In this document: positions 10,368-19,773 of the stretch, one piece after another | Layout of the letters: each line of letters begins with the position of its first letter | How positions within the stretch are numbered: the stretch's first letter is position 1 | Virus record (IMG/VR): IMGVR_UViG_2695420538_000013 | DNA: 19,994 nucleotides | Source of the DNA: a virus | Lineage: Duplodnaviria > Heunggongvirae > Uroviricota > Caudoviricetes | Reading direction: 5' to 3' (one strand) | Program-made: the position numbers and the translations under genes | Notes under the pieces: generated by a model | The model's input: the letters and a program-made list of their open reading frames with translations, nothing else | What the model was told of the DNA's origin: nothing | The model's database searches: none

Positions 10368-10434
10368 TGAAACAGGTGAGTTGAGTTCAAACTGTAGTAC
10401 AATTCTCTCCAGTTTGAACAGGAAAGAATATGCT

Positions 10435-10767
10435 ATGAACCCTTATATTTATCTTGGTGGTGCAATACTTGCAGAGGTCATTGGTACAACCTTAATGAAG
10501 TTTTCAGAAGGTTTTACACGGTTATGGCCATCTGTTGGTACAATTATTTGTTATTGTGCATCATTCTGGTTATTAGCTCAGACGCTGGCTTATATTCCTA
10601 CAGGGATTGCTTATGCTATCTGGTCAGGAGTCGGTATTGTCCTGATTAGCTTACTGTCATGGGGACTTTTCGACCAACGGCTGGACCTGCCAGCTATTAT
10701 AGGCATGATGTTGATTTGTGCCGGTGTGTTGGTTATTAATTTATTGTCACGAAGCACACCACATTAA
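10435..10767 (+). CDS. emrE: Small multidrug resistance (SMR) efflux transporter EmrE
   Basis: 110 aa from MNPYIYLGGAILAEVIGTTLMKFSEGFTRLWPSVG..., four TM helices with the conserved Glu14. The track ORF begins at an upstream TTG. Confidence 0.95.
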   Translation: MNPYIYLGGAILAEVIGTTLMKFSEGFTRLWPSVGTIICYCASFWLLAQTLAYIPTGIAYAIWSGVGIVLISLLSWGLFDQRLDLPAIIGMMLICAGVLVINLLSRSTPH

Positions 10768-10796
10768 AATAATTTGTTTCTAAACGACTAAAATAT

Positions 10797-10830
10797 GGAG
10801 GCTCTTATATTTATATGAGCCTCGTTTTAT
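10797..10830 (+). terminator. Rho-independent terminator downstream of emrE
   Basis: GGAGGCTC (10797-10804), 12-nt loop, GAGCCTC (10817-10823), then GTTTTATGCTTTTT. Confidence 0.6.
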
Positions 10831-11021
10831 GCTTTTTGTTAATGTCTTTATTTTTTATGTATTCTTTTGTGCTTTCAAGATTATGGCGTAAGAAAATTGC
10901 AATACGATTATTGTTGTATATTCAAGATAATGTGACCTTAATTGTCTTTTTAAATAAAAATTAAACAAAAATTATATCCCACCACTAAGGTTTATAAAAG
11001 CATACGTTAGCAGGTGTCACC

Positions 11022-12548
11022 ATGAAAAAAGCCATAGCATATATGCGATTTTCATCACCAGGTCAGATGTCTGGTGACTCATTAAACCGACAGAGAAGAC
11101 TTATTGCTGAATGGTTAAAGGTAAATAGTGATTATTATCTTGATACCATAACATATGAAGATTTAGGATTAAGTGCATTCAAAGGAAAGCATGCACAATC
11201 AGGAGCTTTTTCGGAATTTTTAGATGCTATAGAGCATGGTTATATATTGCCAGGAACTACATTGTTAGTTGAAAGTCTGGACAGACTTTCAAGAGAAAAA
11301 GTCGGTGAAGCGATTGAACGTCTGAAATTGATTTTGAATCACGGTATTGATGTTATAACTCTTTGCGACAATACAGTCTATAATATTGACTCTTTGAATG
11401 AGCCATATTCATTAATAAAAGCCATACTTATAGCACAAAGGGCAAATGAAGAAAGCGAGATAAAGTCAAGTCGGGTTAAATTATCATGGAAGAAAAAACG
11501 GCAGGATGCACTGGAATCAGGTACGATTATGACGGCGTCTTGTCCGAGATGGCTCTCCTTAGATGACAAAAGAACGGCTTTTGTTCCAGACCCCGACAGG
11601 GTGAAAACTATTGAGCTAATTTTTAAACTCAGGATGGAAAGGCGCTCATTGAATGCAATAGCCAAGTATTTAAATGATCATGCTGTAAAGAATTTCTCAG
11701 GAAAAGAAAGTGCATGGGGACCTTCTGTAATTGAAAAATTATTAGCGAATAAAGCTCTGATAGGTATATGCGTACCTTCATATCGTGCAAGAGGGAAAGG
11801 GATAAGTGAAATCGCTGGCTATTATCCCAGAGTCATATCAGATGATTTGTTTTACGCTGTACAGGAAATTCGGTTGGCACCTTTTGGTATTAGCAATAGT
11901 AGCAAGAATCCTATGCTAATAAATCTACTTCGAACAGTTATGAAGTGTGAGGCTTGTGGTAATACCATGATTGTTCATGCGGTATCTGGAAGTTTGCATG
12001 GCTATTATGTTTGTCCGATGAGAAGATTACATCGATGTGACAGGCCATCAATAAAAAGAGATTTGGTTGATTATAATATCATTAATGAATTGCTTTTTAA
12101 TTGTAGCAAAATTCAACCAGTTGAAAACAAGAAAGATGCTAATGAAACTTTAGAGTTAAAAATTATTGAGCTTCAGATGAAAATTAATAATTTAATCGTT
12201 GCATTGTCTGTCGCGCCTGAAGTTACCGCTATAGCAGAGAAAATAAGACTATTAGATAAGGAATTACGAAGGGCTTCGGTATCATTGAAAACTTTGAAGA
12301 GTAAAGGTGTAAATTCATTCAGTGATTTTTATACTATTGACTTAACCAGTAAAAATGGACGAGAGTTATGCCGTACACTTGCCTATAAAACATTCGAAAA
12401 AATCATAATTAATACGGATAATAAAACCTGTGATATTTATTTTATGAATGGCATTGTTTTTAAACACTATCCTTTAATGAAAGTAATATCCGCCCAGCAG
12501 GCGATAAGTGCTCTCAAATATATGGTTGATGGTGAGATTTATTTCTAA
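11022..12548 (+). CDS. ybcK: Large serine recombinase (resolvase/invertase N-terminal catalytic domain, recombinase domain, zinc-ribbon), YbcK-like
   Basis: 508 aa. N-terminal AIAYMRFSSPGQ...SLNRQR (catalytic Ser region), central recombinase domain, Cys cluster CEACGN...YYVCP...HRCD, and C-terminal coiled-coil-like region. Confidence 0.9.
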   Translation: MKKAIAYMRFSSPGQMSGDSLNRQRRLIAEWLKVNSDYYLDTITYEDLGLSAFKGKHAQSGAFSEFLDAIEHGYILPGTTLLVESLDRLSREKVGEAIERLKLILNHGIDVITLCDNTVYNIDSLNEPYSLIKAILIAQRANEESEIKSSRVKLSWKKKRQDALESGTIMTASCPRWLSLDDKRTAFVPDPDRVKTIELIFKLRMERRSLNAIAKYLNDHAVKNFSGKESAWGPSVIEKLLANKALIGICVPSYRARGKGISEIAGYYPRVISDDLFYAVQEIRLAPFGISNSSKNPMLINLLRTVMKCEACGNTMIVHAVSGSLHGYYVCPMRRLHRCDRPSIKRDLVDYNIINELLFNCSKIQPVENKKDANETLELKIIELQMKINNLIVALSVAPEVTAIAEKIRLLDKELRRASVSLKTLKSKGVNSFSDFYTIDLTSKNGRELCRTLAYKTFEKIIINTDNKTCDIYFMNGIVFKHYPLMKVISAQQAISALKYMVDGEIYF

Positions 12549-13012
12549 ATAATGATCTCGGATTTTAAGTTATGCTATGGTGATAAAGTGCAAGACAGAA
12601 TTAATTATCTTTGACGAAACTTAATGGGTAATTACTTTGTTTGCTCCCACAAGCGAGTTTTGTACGGCTGTATTGGGGTAGTAAATGAGCTATACAATCT
12701 TAATCATTTGTCAGGTGAGAACTCTTGGTCGCAGATTCAAATACTGAAAATACGTGACAAATTATTATGAGCAAAATGGTGTATGTCACGTATTTTGAAT
12801 GATAGGTTAAAAAATAACACCGACTTTCGTAGGTATTACTAATAATAAAGCAGAGTTTTTAGATAGTATCAATGTGCTTTGTGTATATTGTGGCAAATAA
12901 TTGGGTTGGGGGTACAATTGTGATTGCTTTTGCATAAAAATTGCGCCTTTATGCATAATGAGATAAAGGAATATCAAATAAAATAACGATAGGTCATAAC
13001 AAAGAGGTTTTT

Positions 13013-13564
13013 ATGAAAACACTTATCGTTTCAACTGTATTGGCATTCATAACATTTTCTGCGCAGGCTGCAGCATTTCAGGTCACTAGTAATGAAATAA
13101 AAACAGGAGAGCAACTTACAACGTCTCATGTCTTTTCTGGATTTGGGTGTGAAGGTGGTAATACATCGCCCTCATTAACCTGGTCTGGTGTTCCTGAAGG
13201 TACCAAAAGCTTTGCCGTAACTGTATATGATCCAGATGCACCTACAGGCAGTGGTTGGTGGCATTGGACTGTTGTTAATATTCCAGCAACAATAACATAT
13301 TTGCCCGTTGATGCAGGGAGACGTGATGGAACAAAACTGCCGACTGGTGCTGTTCAAGGCCGAAATGATTTTGGCTATGCTGGGTTTGGTGGCGCGTGTC
13401 CTCCTAAAGGAGATAAACCACATCATTACCAGTTTAAAGTATGGGCTCTAAAAACTGAAAAGATTCCTGTAGATTCTAACTCCAGCGGAGCGTTAGTTGG
13501 TTATATGCTTAATGCTAATAAAATCGCAACCGCTGAGATAACACCAGTTTATGAGATAAAGTAG
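13013..13564 (+). CDS. ybcL: Secreted PEBP/YbhB-YbcL family (UPF0098) protein
   Basis: 183 aa with signal peptide MKTLIVSTVLAFITFSAQAAA. PEBP motifs DPDAPTGSGWWHW and HHYQFKVWAL. AGAGG Shine-Dalgarno. Confidence 0.85.
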   Translation: MKTLIVSTVLAFITFSAQAAAFQVTSNEIKTGEQLTTSHVFSGFGCEGGNTSPSLTWSGVPEGTKSFAVTVYDPDAPTGSGWWHWTVVNIPATITYLPVDAGRRDGTKLPTGAVQGRNDFGYAGFGGACPPKGDKPHHYQFKVWALKTEKIPVDSNSSGALVGYMLNANKIATAEITPVYEIK

Positions 13565-13573
13565 GGTGAGAGT

Positions 13574-14371
13574 ATGCTGGCAAGAGGTAAGACTAACTTA
13601 AAGATCGAAGAAATACGGATGCATAAACATCATGAGATTCATAGGGTTAAGCCTCTTATGCCAGCTTTGTGTCGTATCCGTCAGGGAAAGAAAGTTATCA
13701 ATTGGGAGACGCATACTTTAACTGTTGATAATAATCAAATAATATTATTTCCTTGTGGTTATGAATTTTATATTGAGAATTATCCTGAAGCAGGGCTTTA
13801 TCTTGCAGAAATGCTTTACTTACCCATTGATTTAATTGAGAGTTTCCAAAAACTTTATACGGTAACTGATCAAATACGTAACAAAACAAGTTTCTTTTTA
13901 CCTCAGAATCCTGAGTTAATATATTGTTGGGAGCAACTAAAAACATCTGTTTCCCGAGGCTTCTCAACTAAAATTCAGGAGCACTTAGCAATGGGCGTTC
14001 TACTTTCGTTAGGAGTGAATCATGTTAATCATTTACTTTTATCATATAGTAAACAATCATTGATAAGTCGTTGTTATAACCTGCTGCTATCCGAACCCGG
14101 CACAAAATGGACAGCAAACAAGGTTGCTCGATATCTCTACATTTCTGTTTCTACATTACATCGCCGTCTAGCAAGCGAGGGGGTAAGTTTCCAAAGTATA
14201 CTGGACGATGTGAGGTTAAATAATGCGTTGTCTGCTATACAAACGACGGTAAAACCTATAAGCGAGATTGCCAGAGAAAATGGTTATAAGTGTCCTTCTC
14301 GTTTTACTGAAAGATTTCATAATCGTTTTAATATAACACCAAGAGAGATAAGAAAAGCTTCCAGAGAGTAA
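13574..14371 (+). CDS. ybcM: AraC/XylS-family transcriptional regulator YbcM-like
   Basis: 265 aa. C-terminal double HTH ([21 protein letters not shown]...[30 protein letters not shown]). Confidence 0.85.
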
Positions 14372-15211: not shown

Positions 15212-15494
15212 TTTGAGAAAAGCAGCGCGTGGTCGGGAATGCCAGGTAAGAATCCCTGGCGTATGTAATGGCAATTCTGAAACGTCTGTACTGGCACATA
15301 TCCGGCTGGCTGGATTGTGCGGTACCGGTATCAAACCGCCAGACCTGATTGCCACCATTGCATGTTCTGCCTGCCACGACGAAATCGACCGCCGCACACA
15401 TTTTGTCGATGCTGCATATGCAAAAGAATGCGCGCTGGAAGGTATGGCGAGAACACAGGTTATCTGGCTGAAAGAGGGGGTTATTAAGGCGTGA
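15204..15494 (+). CDS. ybcO: YbcO-family (DUF1364) Cys-rich putative nuclease
   Basis: 96 aa from [34 protein letters not shown]...[11 protein letters not shown]. The track ORF starts earlier at 15165. Confidence 0.8.
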
Positions 15495-15854
15495 ATACCT
15501 ACAGTATCACATTACCCTGGCCTCCGAGCAATAATCGCTATTACCGCCATAATCGCGGGCGCACGCACGTCAGTGCAGAGGGGGCAGGCATACCGCGATA
15601 ACGTCGCCCGAATCATTAAAAACGCAATGCTGGATATCGGCCTGGCTATGCCTGTGAAAATCCGCATTGAGTGCCACATGCCGGATCGCCGTAGCCGTGA
15701 CCTGGATAATCTGCAAAAAGCCGCTTTTGACGCACTCACTAAAGCAGGTTTCTGGCTGGATGATGCTCAGGTCGTTGATTACCGCGTTGTGAAGATGCCT
15801 GTTACCAAAGGTGGGAGGCTGGAACTGACCATCACCGAAATGGGGAATGAATGA
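15491..15854 (+). pseudogene. rusA: Holliday-junction resolvase RusA, disrupted by a +1 frameshift in a G5 run (15580-15584)
   Basis: The GTG-start frame gives (M)[30 protein letters not shown] and then stops. The remaining RusA sequence [36 protein letters not shown]...TITEMGNE continues in the next frame (track ORF 15573..15854). Confidence 0.75.
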
Positions 15855-16076: not shown

Positions 16077-16454
16077 ATGCGTGATATTCAGATGGTTCTT
16101 GAGCGTTGGGGAGCGTGGGCGGCTAATAATCATGAAGATGTGACCTGGTCGTCCATTGCCGCCGGTTTTAAGGGATTAATTCCTTCAAAAGTAAAATCTC
16201 GCCCGCAATGTTGTGACGATGACGCGATGATCATTTGCGGGTGCATGGCCCGTCTGAAAAAGAACAACAGCGATTTGCATGATTTATTGGTGGACTATTA
16301 TGTCGGCGGCATGACTTTTATGGCGCTTGCACGTAAGCATGGGCGATCTGATTGTTGGGTTGGCAGGATGCTCCAGAAAGCTGAGTGCGTAGTGGAGGGT
16401 ATGCTGATGGTGTTGGATCTCCGATTGGAGATGGATGCTGATTGTTCGAAATAA
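16077..16454 (+). CDS. quuD: Late-gene antiterminator Q (QuuD-like)
   Basis: [22 protein letters not shown]... with Cys-rich zinc-binding region ([16 protein letters not shown]). Positioned just upstream of the late promoter/terminator and lysis genes. The start may instead be the TTG one codon earlier (16074) or the TTG at 16062. Confidence 0.85.
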
Positions 16455-16466
16455 TTAAAGGAAAAG

Positions 16467-16495
16467 TTGCTGTCTGATTCTCATTAGTCTAACAT
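16467..16495 (+). promoter_or_regulatory. Candidate late promoter pR' (Q-utilisation region)
   Basis: TTGCTG (16467-16472), 17-bp spacer, TAACAT (16490-16495), located between Q and the terminator, followed by the near-palindrome AACATTTTAAATGTT. Confidence 0.25.
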
Positions 16496-16552
16496 TTTAA
16501 ATGTTGGAATCGCAACGTAGTTATTATCATATAACAGCTTGTTTCCTGATTT

Positions 16553-16582
16553 AGCCAGCCTCCCCAAAGGCTGGTTTTTTTC
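16553..16582 (+). terminator. Rho-independent terminator (tR'-like) downstream of Q and its promoter region
   Basis: AGCCAGCC, loop TCCCCAAA, GGCTGG, followed by a T7 run (16575-16581). Confidence 0.7.
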
Positions 16583-16609
16583 TAATAAGTATTATTTCGG
16601 GTAGGGATT

Positions 16610-17134
16610 TTATTGTTTAACCCATAATAATTCATTGACATTGAATCCCAACTTTTGAGCGGTTCGCACATAGTCTGCTTTTACTTTATCTGGAATAGTT
16701 GGGGTCCTTGCCAGAATCCATAGGTATTCTCTGTTCGGACCACTGACAAGAGCATACTTATACTCATCATCCAGTTTGATTACATTATAGCCACCATAGA
16801 AGGGGCCAAAAAACGAAACCTTCAACGCTGCAGTTTTAGTATCTCCAGTAAAGTATGCTTTACCTTCGCTCTCGCTCCATTTATTTTTCGTTGGATCGTA
16901 TCCACGGTTAAGTACACGAATCCCTCCGTCGTTCCGTTTTCCATAGGTAGCGCTGACCTGTTCCAGACCACGTTCGAACCGGTTCTCGAGGCGAGCTATT
17001 TCATACCATTTTCCGAGGTAGCGGTTGGCGTCAAAATTTGTAATCGGCTGCACACCTTTAGGTGGTGTCGGGGCCTTACATGCTATAAGAGTGAAAGAGA
17101 GTGCAATGCCAGTCAACACAGGCCATAACTTCAT
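16610..17134 (-). CDS. Bacterial lipocalin (Blc-like) outer-membrane lipoprotein
   Basis: 174 aa with lipoprotein signal and lipobox LIAC (MKLWPVLTGIALSFTLIACKAP). Lipocalin motifs NFDANRYLGKWYEIARLENRFERG and KVSFFGPFYGGYNVIKLD. Diverged from, not identical to, my recollection of chromosomal Blc. Confidence 0.85.
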   Translation of the reverse strand: MKLWPVLTGIALSFTLIACKAPTPPKGVQPITNFDANRYLGKWYEIARLENRFERGLEQVSATYGKRNDGGIRVLNRGYDPTKNKWSESEGKAYFTGDTKTAALKVSFFGPFYGGYNVIKLDDEYKYALVSGPNREYLWILARTPTIPDKVKADYVRTAQKLGFNVNELLWVKQ

Positions 17135-17326
17135 AATAAATCCTGTACTTTTGATAGTTGAGAGTAAGTATGAAAGATAGATGATTACGACCGATCACTT
17201 AAAGAACTTTCATACTATATTAGGAATAGTCTATAACAGAAAAATTGTCAGTGATGACGCCAGAAAGGCAATTTATTCCGTGCACTACACAGTTTATGTG
17301 TTAATGAATTAGTCAAGGGGGAGAAT

Positions 17327-18286
17327 ATGATAAAAAAACCTGTGATTGGAATCAGCGGTTGTTTGGCCGGCTCTGCTGTTCGTTTTGATGGTGGTCACAA
17401 AAGAGCTGACTTTTTAATGGACAAATTAGTGGAATGGGTAACATTCAGACCAGTATGTCCGGAAATGGCTATAGGGCTGCCAGTTCCGCGTCCTGCTCTA
17501 CGTCTTGTGCGCTCGACGCAAGGAAATATACGGATGTGTTTCAGCCACGACCAGAATGAGGATGTGACAGAGAGAATGACAGAGTTTAGTCGTTCTTATA
17601 TGGACAAATTAAAGGATGTATCGGGGTTTGTGGTTTGTGCTAAATCTCCCAGCTGTGGCATGGAGCGCGTGCGTGTCTATGATGAAAATGGTAATCGAGG
17701 TCGTAAAGATGGAGTGGGACTATTTACGAGCACTTTGATGGAAAAGTTTTCCTGGCTACCGGTTGAAGAGGATGGGCGATTACATGATCCAGTGCTTCGT
17801 GAGAATTTTGTTGAAAGAGTTTTTGCTTTGCATGAGCTCAATCACCTTTACAAGGAGAAATTATCAAGAAGAGAGTTATTAGCTTTTCATAGTCGTTATA
17901 AGCTTCAGTTGTTGGCGCATAGTCAGGCAGGCTATAAAGATATGGGACCATTTGTGGCTGCAATACACGAGTGGGCGGACCTTGAATCATACTTTGAGGT
18001 GTATCGTGATAAGCTGATGGCGATTCTCAGAAAACCTGCATCACGTAAAAATCACACGAATGTGCTGATGCATATACAGGGGTATTTTAGTAACTACTTA
18101 AGTACACGCCAGCGTAAAGAGTTGAGCGAGGTTATACTTAACTATCGTTCTGGCACATTACCTCTTCTTGCGCCGTTGACTCTGCTGAAGCATTATCTGG
18201 GTGAGTATCCTAATGATTACTTGCTTACACAGAATTACTTCGATCCCTATCCGGACGAACTGGCTCTAAGACTGATGGTAAATTAA
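17327..18286 (+). CDS. DUF523 (TudS-type Fe-S desulfidase) fused to DUF1722 (YbgA-like) protein; candidate RudS-like thionucleoside/tRNA desulfidase
   Basis: 319 aa with AAGGGGGAG Shine-Dalgarno. N-terminal half has conserved Cys residues (GISGCLAGS, VCPEMAIGLP, VVCAKSPSCGMERV) as in DUF523; C-terminal half resembles YbgA/DUF1722. Domain assignment from memory, not a search. Confidence 0.75.
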   Translation: MIKKPVIGISGCLAGSAVRFDGGHKRADFLMDKLVEWVTFRPVCPEMAIGLPVPRPALRLVRSTQGNIRMCFSHDQNEDVTERMTEFSRSYMDKLKDVSGFVVCAKSPSCGMERVRVYDENGNRGRKDGVGLFTSTLMEKFSWLPVEEDGRLHDPVLRENFVERVFALHELNHLYKEKLSRRELLAFHSRYKLQLLAHSQAGYKDMGPFVAAIHEWADLESYFEVYRDKLMAILRKPASRKNHTNVLMHIQGYFSNYLSTRQRKELSEVILNYRSGTLPLLAPLTLLKHYLGEYPNDYLLTQNYFDPYPDELALRLMVN

Positions 18287-18637: not shown

Positions 18638-19369
18638 ATGCCATACATATGTTCTATCATTTTGGTGTTGAACTCGTTTGATGTCCGAATTGGTAAAGAA
18701 GATATTTTGTTTAAAAAAGGAAGTGCTGTTCTCATTGATTACAATTTAAAAGATTTTTTTTCATCAAATATAGATCATGTAATGATCGTAGATGTTGAAG
18801 AGAAAACAGTTAATGATTTCTTTAAAAGCAACACACTCTCACCTTTTTCTGTAAGAAGGTTTTATCCGGCATACTTGATGGTGGAATGTGAAGATTTTTC
18901 ATTGTTAAAGAACTTGATTGCATGCTTGAATTGTGATGGCAGAACTGTGGATTTTGTTAGAAATCAAATATCACTTGCATGTCTTGCTATCTTATCTTCA
19001 GAGAAAATAGTGCAAAGTTTTTTATTTGGATGTCTTAATAGTTTAGGAAGTAAAGTTAAGGCTATTATTCACACGGATATATCTGCAGCATGGAGACTTT
19101 GTGATATATCTTCAAGACTGTATCTGAGTGAAAGTCTGTTAAAAAGAAAATTAAAGCACGAAGGCTTATCATTTAGTAAGTTAATTCTTGAAGAGCGAAT
19201 GGTGATGGCGGAAAGGTTATTAAGCTACAATTTATATTCTGTTGGAAAAGTTGCTGAGATATGCGGTTATGAAAACACGTCATATTTTGTGAGTGTTTTC
19301 AGAAGATATTTTGGTGTTCCTCCCCATCAATATTCATCAAGACTTTTTTTAGAAAAAGACATGATGTAA
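18638..19369 (+). CDS. AraC-family transcriptional regulator, AppY/EnvY-like, in AT-rich DNA
   Basis: From MPYICSIILVLNSFDV... (AGGTGG Shine-Dalgarno 5 nt upstream; the track ORF begins at GTG 18629). C-terminal AraC double HTH (WRLCDISSRLYLSESLLKRKLKHEGLSFSKL...VAEICGYENTSYFVSVFRRYFGVPP). N-terminus resembles what I recall of AppY. Confidence 0.8.
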   Translation: MPYICSIILVLNSFDVRIGKEDILFKKGSAVLIDYNLKDFFSSNIDHVMIVDVEEKTVNDFFKSNTLSPFSVRRFYPAYLMVECEDFSLLKNLIACLNCDGRTVDFVRNQISLACLAILSSEKIVQSFLFGCLNSLGSKVKAIIHTDISAAWRLCDISSRLYLSESLLKRKLKHEGLSFSKLILEERMVMAERLLSYNLYSVGKVAEICGYENTSYFVSVFRRYFGVPPHQYSSRLFLEKDMM

Positions 19370-19557
19370 CGTGATGCGTTTTAATGATTTTGTAATTTTC
19401 GTATTTGATAATTGTATGATGCTTTCAGCTACGCCAGAATAATCGCTGGCGTTTTTCTTTTTGAATAGATGTTCAAGCCTTACGCTAATGTAACTTCTAT
19501 ACCTTTCCTCTTCGTTCCGAACCGTGTACACCATCCGTTATTTGCGGAGGTGAGGCT

Positions 19558-19773
19558 ATGAAATCCATGGATAAGTTAACAACGGGCATTGCCTACGGCA
19601 CCTCCGCAGGCAGTGCTGGCTACTGGTTTTTACAGCTGCTCGATAAAGTCACGCCCTCACAGTGGGCAGCAATAGGTGTGCTGGGTAGCTTGGTATTTGG
19701 CTTGCTGACGTACCTGACAAACCTTTATTTCAAGATTAAAGAAGATAAGCGCAAGGCTGCGAGAGGTGAATAA
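19558..19773 (+). CDS. Phage 21-type class II holin (pinholin S21-like)
   Basis: 71 aa [71 protein letters not shown]. Dual-start MKSM motif, two TM segments, GGAGGTG Shine-Dalgarno. Confidence 0.9.

Follow-up and report, generated by a model that had tools for sequence, protein, structure and literature searches.

One described relative of the gene examined here is the chromosomal blc of E. coli (b4149; structures 1QWD, 2ACO and 3MBT), whose product belongs to the same family as the phage protein and shares its length, lipobox position, fold and ligand pocket. The two differ in the residue that follows the lipid-modified cysteine, which is lysine in phage Blc and serine in E. coli Blc, in gene linkage (rudS for the phage gene, ampC/sugE for the chromosomal one) and in distribution; the phage gene is prophage-borne and occurs in about 21% of genomes, whereas chromosomal E. 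coli blc occurs in about 100%. A blc gene has also been mobilised on plasmids with blaCMY-2, as part of a Citrobacter freundii ampC-blc-sugE segment. The plasmid gene belongs to the ampC-linked clade (clade I) and is passive beside the resistance gene, whereas phage blc belongs to a second clade (clade II) and sits in a moron slot, a moron being a gene that phage growth does not need; C. freundii Blc (L047) is only 60% identical to phage Blc. Outer-membrane protein genes that are expressed in the lysogen and likewise run against late transcription, in or near the lysis region, are lambda bor/iss, with its serum-resistance phenotype, and nmpC of DLP12, which encodes a porin. A bor/iss gene follows the lysis genes of the prophage described here and nmpC fills the slot of blc in DLP12, but the Bor/Iss and NmpC proteins are unrelated to phage Blc. 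T5 Llp and Cor are phage-encoded outer-membrane lipoproteins that block FhuA; no sequence or family relationship between them and phage Blc was found in PADLOC or PHROG.

Both the lysophospholipid binding and the heme binding of E. coli Blc are in vitro findings, the affinity for heme is about 1.4 µM, another tetrapyrrole may be preferred, and a response of chromosomal blc to starvation and to high osmolarity has been reported (PMC8177097). The phages concerned (Lambda_2E9, 1H12 and others) were annotated by Mathieu et al. in 2020, who already named blc a frequent lambda moron (PMC6969025); because of this the finding reported here is correct but known, and the gene is already annotated and has a PHROG of its own. 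The new elements are modest, namely the clade-II origin of phage blc and its linkage to rudS.

The stretch analysed, hereafter the window, comprises 19,994 nucleotides of the IMG/VR virus record IMGVR_UViG_2695420538_000013, and the features that bear on blc are collected in Table 1. Our main reading, to which we assign a probability of about 0.6, is that the product is an additional Blc outer-membrane lipocalin, a paralogue, whose gene a lambdoid prophage carries as a moron. Judged by its sequence, the blc interval holds a genuine and undamaged gene whose product is a Blc-type outer-membrane lipocalin: the ORF call on the window returned an ATG-initiated frame of 174 codons that fills the interval exactly, with the ribosome-binding site AGGA 8 nt 5' of the ATG. 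The product begins with MKLWPVLTGIALSFTLIA followed directly by cysteine, that is, with a basic residue, a hydrophobic core and the lipobox L-I-A-C. The codon of Cys19, which aligns with Cys19 of K-12 Blc, lies at 17078..17080 and the signal peptide is encoded by 17081..17134; the residue at +2 is Lys (C19-K20) and not Asp, so that by sequence this is a type II signal peptide with a non-Asp +2 residue. The precursor would leave the cytoplasm through Sec, receive its lipid at Cys19 and be processed by signal peptidase II, as expected from the signal peptide and the standard pathway, and because residue +2 is Lys the Lol system would be predicted to sort phage Blc to the outer membrane.

Family searches gave a match to Pfam Lipocalin_2 (E 7e-44) and, over residues 1-174, to NCBIfam NF007786, 'outer membrane lipoprotein Blc' (316 bits against a cutoff of 267), and in a sequence search PDB Blc chains were matched at E about 1e-68. 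Over 174 residues the protein aligns gaplessly with K-12 Blc b4149 at 60% identity, and it is identical to WP_000780581.1 / A0A0A1A117 (the RefSeq protein of identical DNA and the UniRef name of the exact sequence, respectively). An AF2 model built from 26 homologues (pLDDT 79.7) has eight main strands and a C-terminal helix at 149-161, and Foldseek superposed it on 2ACO, 1QWD and 3MBT with TM 0.84-0.95 and rmsd 1.2-1.8 Å; as modelled, the protein is a barrel of eight antiparallel beta-strands with a C-terminal helix, the lipocalin fold. The identification as a Blc-type lipocalin lipoprotein in the original prediction was thereby confirmed, both by the family profiles and by the homology and structure prediction that it had proposed as a check.

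In E. coli Blc, 19 residues lie within 4 Å of heme in wtBlc-split, and the cavity also holds vaccenic acid (Bozhanova et al., PMC8177097). Identical residues are found at 18 of these 19 positions in the phage protein, and the sole change, K77R, brings in the residue that is usual in nearly all other relatives. Since the pocket is more conserved than the overall identity of 63% predicts (hypergeometric P = 0.001), the ligand class of phage Blc should, by this comparison of sequences, be that of E. coli Blc, i.e., lysophospholipids/fatty acids or a tetrapyrrole such as heme. The outer-membrane barrel would accordingly be expected, from the conservation of its pocket, to bind small hydrophobic molecules.

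Table 1. Features of the window in and around the blc cargo slot
Feature	Coordinates	Strand	Basis or remark
Antiterminator Q	16077..16454	+	Pfam PF06530 (Phage_antitermQ) E 3e-50; RefSeq annotation of identical DNA
Presumed PR'-like late promoter and short-transcript leader	16455..16552	+	Position inferred from lambdoid architecture
tR'-like intrinsic terminator	16553..16585	+	9-bp G+C-rich stem and U-run; terminator scan; its end lies 24 nt short of the blc stop
blc-type lipocalin lipoprotein gene, 174 aa	16610..17134	-	Family, fold and sequence matches
Divergent intergenic region expected to hold the blc and rudS promoters	17135..17326	.	192 bp
rudS (YbgA family; TudS/DUF523 fused to DUF1722), cassette partner of blc	17327..18286	+	Pfam PF04463 and PF08349
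AraC-family (YdeO-like) regulator, third cassette gene	18638..19369	+	Pfam HTH_18/HTH_AraC; NCBIfam YdeO 127 bits, below cutoff
Terminator-like hairpin, cargo/holin boundary	19431..19462	+	Terminator scan
Holin (essD type), first late lysis gene, right border of the cargo slot	19558..19773	+	Annotation of identical DNA

The last 4.5 kb of the window are 100% identical to many E. coli chromosomes, and in strain 28Eco12 the host element is a complete-looking lambdoid prophage (DLP12/lambda-like). Its left part holds int, exo/bet/gam, a cI-like repressor, O/P, ren, emrE, ybcK/L/M, the nin region, rusA and Q, and its right part holds the three cargo genes followed by essD/rrrD/rzpD, iss/bor, terminase, and head and tail genes. 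The blc gene is thus phage cargo, as had been proposed, carried by a lambdoid prophage with Q on one side of it and the lysis genes on the other. It is transcribed against both Q and the holin gene, and its orientation opposite to the late operon had also been noted from the window. K-12 DLP12 has the same backbone with nmpC in the Q-holin slot, in the same (-) orientation as blc; homology between the two prophages stops just after Q and restarts about 10 nt before the holin ATG, at the ribosome-binding site. Located between conserved modules of the prophage, and dispensable in that DLP12 has nmpC there, the gene has these two attributes of a moron. One gene order, Q, blc(-), rudS, araC, holin, recurs in 74 of the 80 viral loci taken from IMG/VR (contig ends interrupt five of the others, and the remaining one is L126), Q adjoins blc in all 80, always 161-162 bp from the blc end, and the blc-rudS spacing is constant across viral loci at 193 bp. 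The three-gene cassette is also present in 12 deposited phage genomes, and it occurs in different lambdoid backbones, with DLP12-like and with Qin-like nin regions.

The RNA of 16497..16590 has a predicted folding energy of -26.2 kcal/mol (z -3.9), and none of 200 shuffled sequences was as stable; the hairpin and U-run within it start about 100 nt after Q, and the region has the look of a lambdoid PR'-tR' unit. A match to TTGCTG-17-TAACAT between Q and the terminator is weak and was read by eye, and the presumed PR' region is not homologous to the region downstream of quuD in DLP12. The predicted short transcript would converge with the 3' end of the blc mRNA; the equivalent transcript of Stx phages has been reported to act as a small RNA. 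In a sigma-70 scan of the blc-rudS intergenic region, no site at threshold was found on the blc strand and one 9/12 site (17158..17185) was found on the rudS strand. The two flanking terminators and the opposite strand fit a separate blc transcription unit, for which no promoter was identified. Because blc is placed on the opposite strand, just past the tR'-like terminator, its transcription in the lysogen would come from a promoter of its own and not from Q-modified late transcription. The latter would instead run antisense through blc and then sense through rudS and araC to the holin gene, and blc may be silenced by this antisense passage while Q-driven late transcription lasts.

An upstream motif, AGACTATTCCTAATATAGTATGAA, together with a sigma-S-like -10 element, appeared in a MAFFT alignment to be shared with the Enterobacter and Buttiauxella blc2 genes; this candidate was rejected, the local-alignment scores being reached by 10-298 of 500 shuffles. 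The same motif resembles the RcsB box (TNRGAN4TCYNA); sites of this kind are not above chance in the window, where 14 were found at one mismatch against 25.7 expected, and this candidate was likewise set aside. A search of Rfam revealed no known RNA near blc, and its sole match was the IS3 frameshift pseudoknot at 1734..1850. At the other end of the cargo, DLP12 has a hairpin analogous to that of the cargo/holin boundary at the aligned place upstream of essD (L086, about 11260..11300), despite its different cargo. This suggests that the hairpin before the holin gene is a conserved insulator of the lysis genes, and in the present prophage it probably insulates them from transcription of the cargo in the lysogen.

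The original prediction also held that the gene is likely expressed in the lysogen, and for expression outside lytic growth there is support in the literature. In a TMT proteomic study of E. coli CCUG 70745 published in 2026, the protein WP_000780581.1 / A0A0A1A117 was listed as 'Blc' and was quantified in untreated as well as treated cells, its tie to the present gene being identity of accession (PMC13459554). After 15 min at 128 or 192 µg/mL meropenem, 'Blc' was up 1.99-fold or 2.98-fold, respectively, a rise to which prophage induction by the antibiotic may have contributed, and it rose alongside Spy, PspC, IbpB, MliC and other envelope-stress proteins (PMC13459554). This is a single study, and its authors mention no prophage (PMC13459554). 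Proteomic and genomic studies label the phage protein simply 'Blc', and it is therefore easily confused with the product of the chromosomal gene. Under our main reading, the protein would be made in the growing lysogen and would increase within 15 min of cell-wall stress, as these literature data indicate (PMC13459554), and the likely benefit would be an extra or differently regulated dose of Blc for envelope lipid housekeeping under stress. Because about one fifth of genomes carry the gene and the protein responds to a last-line antibiotic, any phenotype conferred by blc would be relevant to how prophages tune the envelope of clinical strains.

In a neighbour-joining tree, phage Blc falls in clade II, apart from the ampC-linked clade of E. 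coli, Salmonella and Citrobacter Blc, to whose members it is 57-61% identical, and together with chromosomal genes of Enterobacter, Leclercia, Huaxiibacter, Buttiauxella, Kosakonia, Raoultella, Pantoea and Symbiopectobacterium at 71-81% identity; its closest non-phage relatives are 77-82% identical, and Buttiauxella izardii carries one blc of each clade. Clade-II chromosomal Blc proteins (Enterobacter, Leclercia, Buttiauxella, Cedecea, Serratia rubidaea) have in common with phage Blc the N-terminus MK(L/I)WPV...ACK-PTPPKGVQP, and clade-II chromosomes and the phage have the same divergent blc/rudS neighbourhood. In 10 of the 14 clade-II loci examined, blc has a divergent rudS (70-73% identical) at a distance of about 1.5 kb, the rudS-linked relatives being from Enterobacter, Leclercia, Buttiauxella, Huaxiibacter, Raoultella, Serratia rubidaea and a metagenome contig; the other 4 copies have no rudS within 6 kb. 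Chromosomes of clade II carry a MerR/MlrA-like gene and usually a transthyretin-like gene between blc and rudS, whereas the phage is without both. Both genes were found there in the two loci annotated in detail, and in Serratia rubidaea the MerR-like gene is present and the rest of the blc-rudS gap has no called gene. No trace of the MerR-like or the transthyretin-like gene turned up when the region between blc and rudS in the phage was searched. The GC content of phage blc is 44%, against 51-60% in its chromosomal relatives, and that of phage blc and rudS together is 44%, against 57% in a chromosomal locus.

Because both its clade and its neighbourhood (rudS, not ampC/gdx) differ from those of E. 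coli blc, the phage gene is a paralogue and not an orthologue of the latter. The description of the gene as diverged from chromosomal blc is correct, since identity to K-12 Blc is 60%; the gene is, however, not a diverged copy of host blc but a member of a separate clade that was captured with rudS. Identity with the host gene, the finding that would have marked a simple chromosomal capture, was not observed at this 60%, and capture of host blc is ruled out by this value, by the different clade and by the presence of chromosomal blc in 5425 of 5426 E. coli genomes regardless of the prophage. Synteny points to a chromosomal blc-merR-transthyretin-like-rudS locus, in some other enterobacterial lineage, as the source from which the phage received blc together with rudS, and the simplest reading of the sequences is an old joint capture of the two genes from an unsampled lineage of this kind. 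On this reading, the AraC-like gene would have been added separately from blc-rudS. It has 32% GC and its own PHROG (1450), and it presumably resembles the prophage-encoded AraC-like regulators of EHEC (PatE/Psr).

The rudS gene of the window shares 92% DNA identity with that of Lambda_2E9, which belongs to a set of 11 deposited, nearly identical phages, 1H12 among them, and RudS_vir of phage 1H12 has been characterised experimentally as a tRNA 4-thiouridine desulfidase (PMC11417400). In E. coli the sole counterpart is YbgA, a stand-alone DUF1722 protein (PMC11417400), and prophage rudS therefore adds an activity that the host lacks. RudS genes often lie in light-responsive operons controlled by MerR/LitR, and RudS lessens the growth arrest that UVA causes in E. 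coli (PMC11417400). Many Enterobacterales homologues stand at much the same distance from phage RudS (70-77%). The nearest chromosomal one (76%) comes last in an operon at 1..5960 of a Citrobacter braakii-type contig (L170), with the order SDR - amine oxidase - DUF1365 - cyclopropane-fatty-acid-synthase-like - DUF2878 - chalcone-isomerase-like - DUF3833 - RudS; the gene content of this operon links RudS to lipid-modifying genes. A 175-aa unannotated protein of the Citrobacter rudS operon was tested as a candidate lipocalin and is not one. The clade-II linkage of Blc and rudS, on chromosomes and in phage, is a modest new lead to the function of bacterial lipocalins.

This linkage admits an alternative that we consider unlikely, in which blc and rudS would form a module against near-UV or blue light or oxidative damage, the remnant of a conserved, MerR-controlled locus of enterobacteria (blc2, merR-like, transthyretin-like, rudS). 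RudS would strip UVA-reactive s4U from tRNA, and clade-II Blc would capture photosensitising tetrapyrroles or photo-oxidised lipids in the envelope. Such a module would agree with the divergent arrangement of blc and rudS in several genera around a MerR-family (MlrA-like) regulator, with the retention of the two as a pair in the phage, with the light-responsive operons and the UVA effect cited above, with the position of Citrobacter RudS at the end of an operon of lipid-modifying genes, and with the binding of heme, and possibly preference for another tetrapyrrole, by E. coli Blc (PMC8177097). The phage, however, is without the MerR regulator and the transthyretin-like gene and retains no remnants of them, so that any light control would have been lost, and the 4 of 14 clade-II chromosomal copies that have no rudS within 6 kb also speak against the module. 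Furthermore, gut E. coli meet little light, and the only expression data indicate cell-wall stress (PMC13459554). If the module were real, a temperate phage would be passing on to E. coli a stress-tolerance pair not otherwise found there, and Blc-type lipocalins would gain their first defined physiological role.

The distribution of the gene and the pattern of its substitutions bear on whether it is of use at all. Phage blc was found in 1135 of 5426 complete E. coli genomes (about 21%), and 80% or more of the gene is present in 1042 of these 1135 carriers; because all but one of the genomes carry chromosomal blc, the phage gene is a second copy, a paralogue. Among phage blc alleles that differ at 2-5% of nucleotides, dN/dS is 0.07-0.23, and alleles of 95% identity are separated by 18-20 synonymous and 5-8 non-synonymous changes. 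These data demonstrate that phage blc alleles are under purifying selection. A neutral hitch-hiker, travelling with the Q-PR' module and of no benefit to host or phage, would be consistent with two observations: a single Q allele (97-99% identical among viral loci) always accompanies blc, so that blc could owe its frequency to the module's success, and the host already has a blc. In contrast, the dN/dS values, the intactness of blc in most carriers and the fact that the protein is made and regulated (PMC13459554) all argue against a neutral gene, as does the neighbouring AraC-like gene, which is frameshifted or shortened in some alleles in which blc is not decaying. Given the selection signal and the regulated protein, we consider a neutral passenger decidedly unlikely.

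The functions suggested for the lipoprotein in the original prediction fared unequally, envelope-stress protection receiving indirect support from the proteomic data and superinfection exclusion receiving none. Masking or inactivation of an outer-membrane phage receptor by the lipoprotein, which would shield the lysogen, or phage just released, against adsorption, would suit a lysogen-expressed outer-membrane lipoprotein of the general class of Llp and Cor and the predominance of membrane proteins among lambda morons (Mathieu et al., PMC6969025), but it is most unlikely, given that no PADLOC defence model matched at E <= 0.01, that PHROG 2809, to which phage Blc belongs, carries no assigned function, that a small-molecule pocket kept at 18/19 positions marks a straightforward Blc, that the close chromosomal relatives stand in non-phage housekeeping contexts, and that a separate sie gene is listed in the same phages (Mathieu et al., PMC6969025).

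Several further observations concern the prophage copy in the window. Its integrase is split into 1..915 and 2241..2522 by an IS3-family element on the minus strand, with orfB at 918..1808, orfA at 1805..2131 and an ALIL frameshift pseudoknot at 1734..1850; this insertion is shared by no complete E. coli genome of the collection, and the prophage copy is probably locked in place. The rusA gene (15491..15854, plus strand) is frameshifted, with a 93-aa C-terminal ORF left, and is a pseudogene in the identical DNA of 28Eco12. With its integrase split and rusA frameshifted, this prophage copy is decaying; blc is nonetheless intact. Between the replication and nin regions lies a second, low-GC (32-40%) cargo block (10381..14371, plus strand) composed of emrE, ylcJ, ybcK (serine recombinase), ybcL (PEBP family) and ybcM (AraC family), and the same block is present in K-12 DLP12. 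Finally, a 2113-bp contig (L003; JARKOR010000135.1) binned as 'Candidatus Nanosynbacter' carries Q, blc and the start of rudS at 99-100% protein identity, and this prophage segment is almost certainly a binning contaminant in that MAG.
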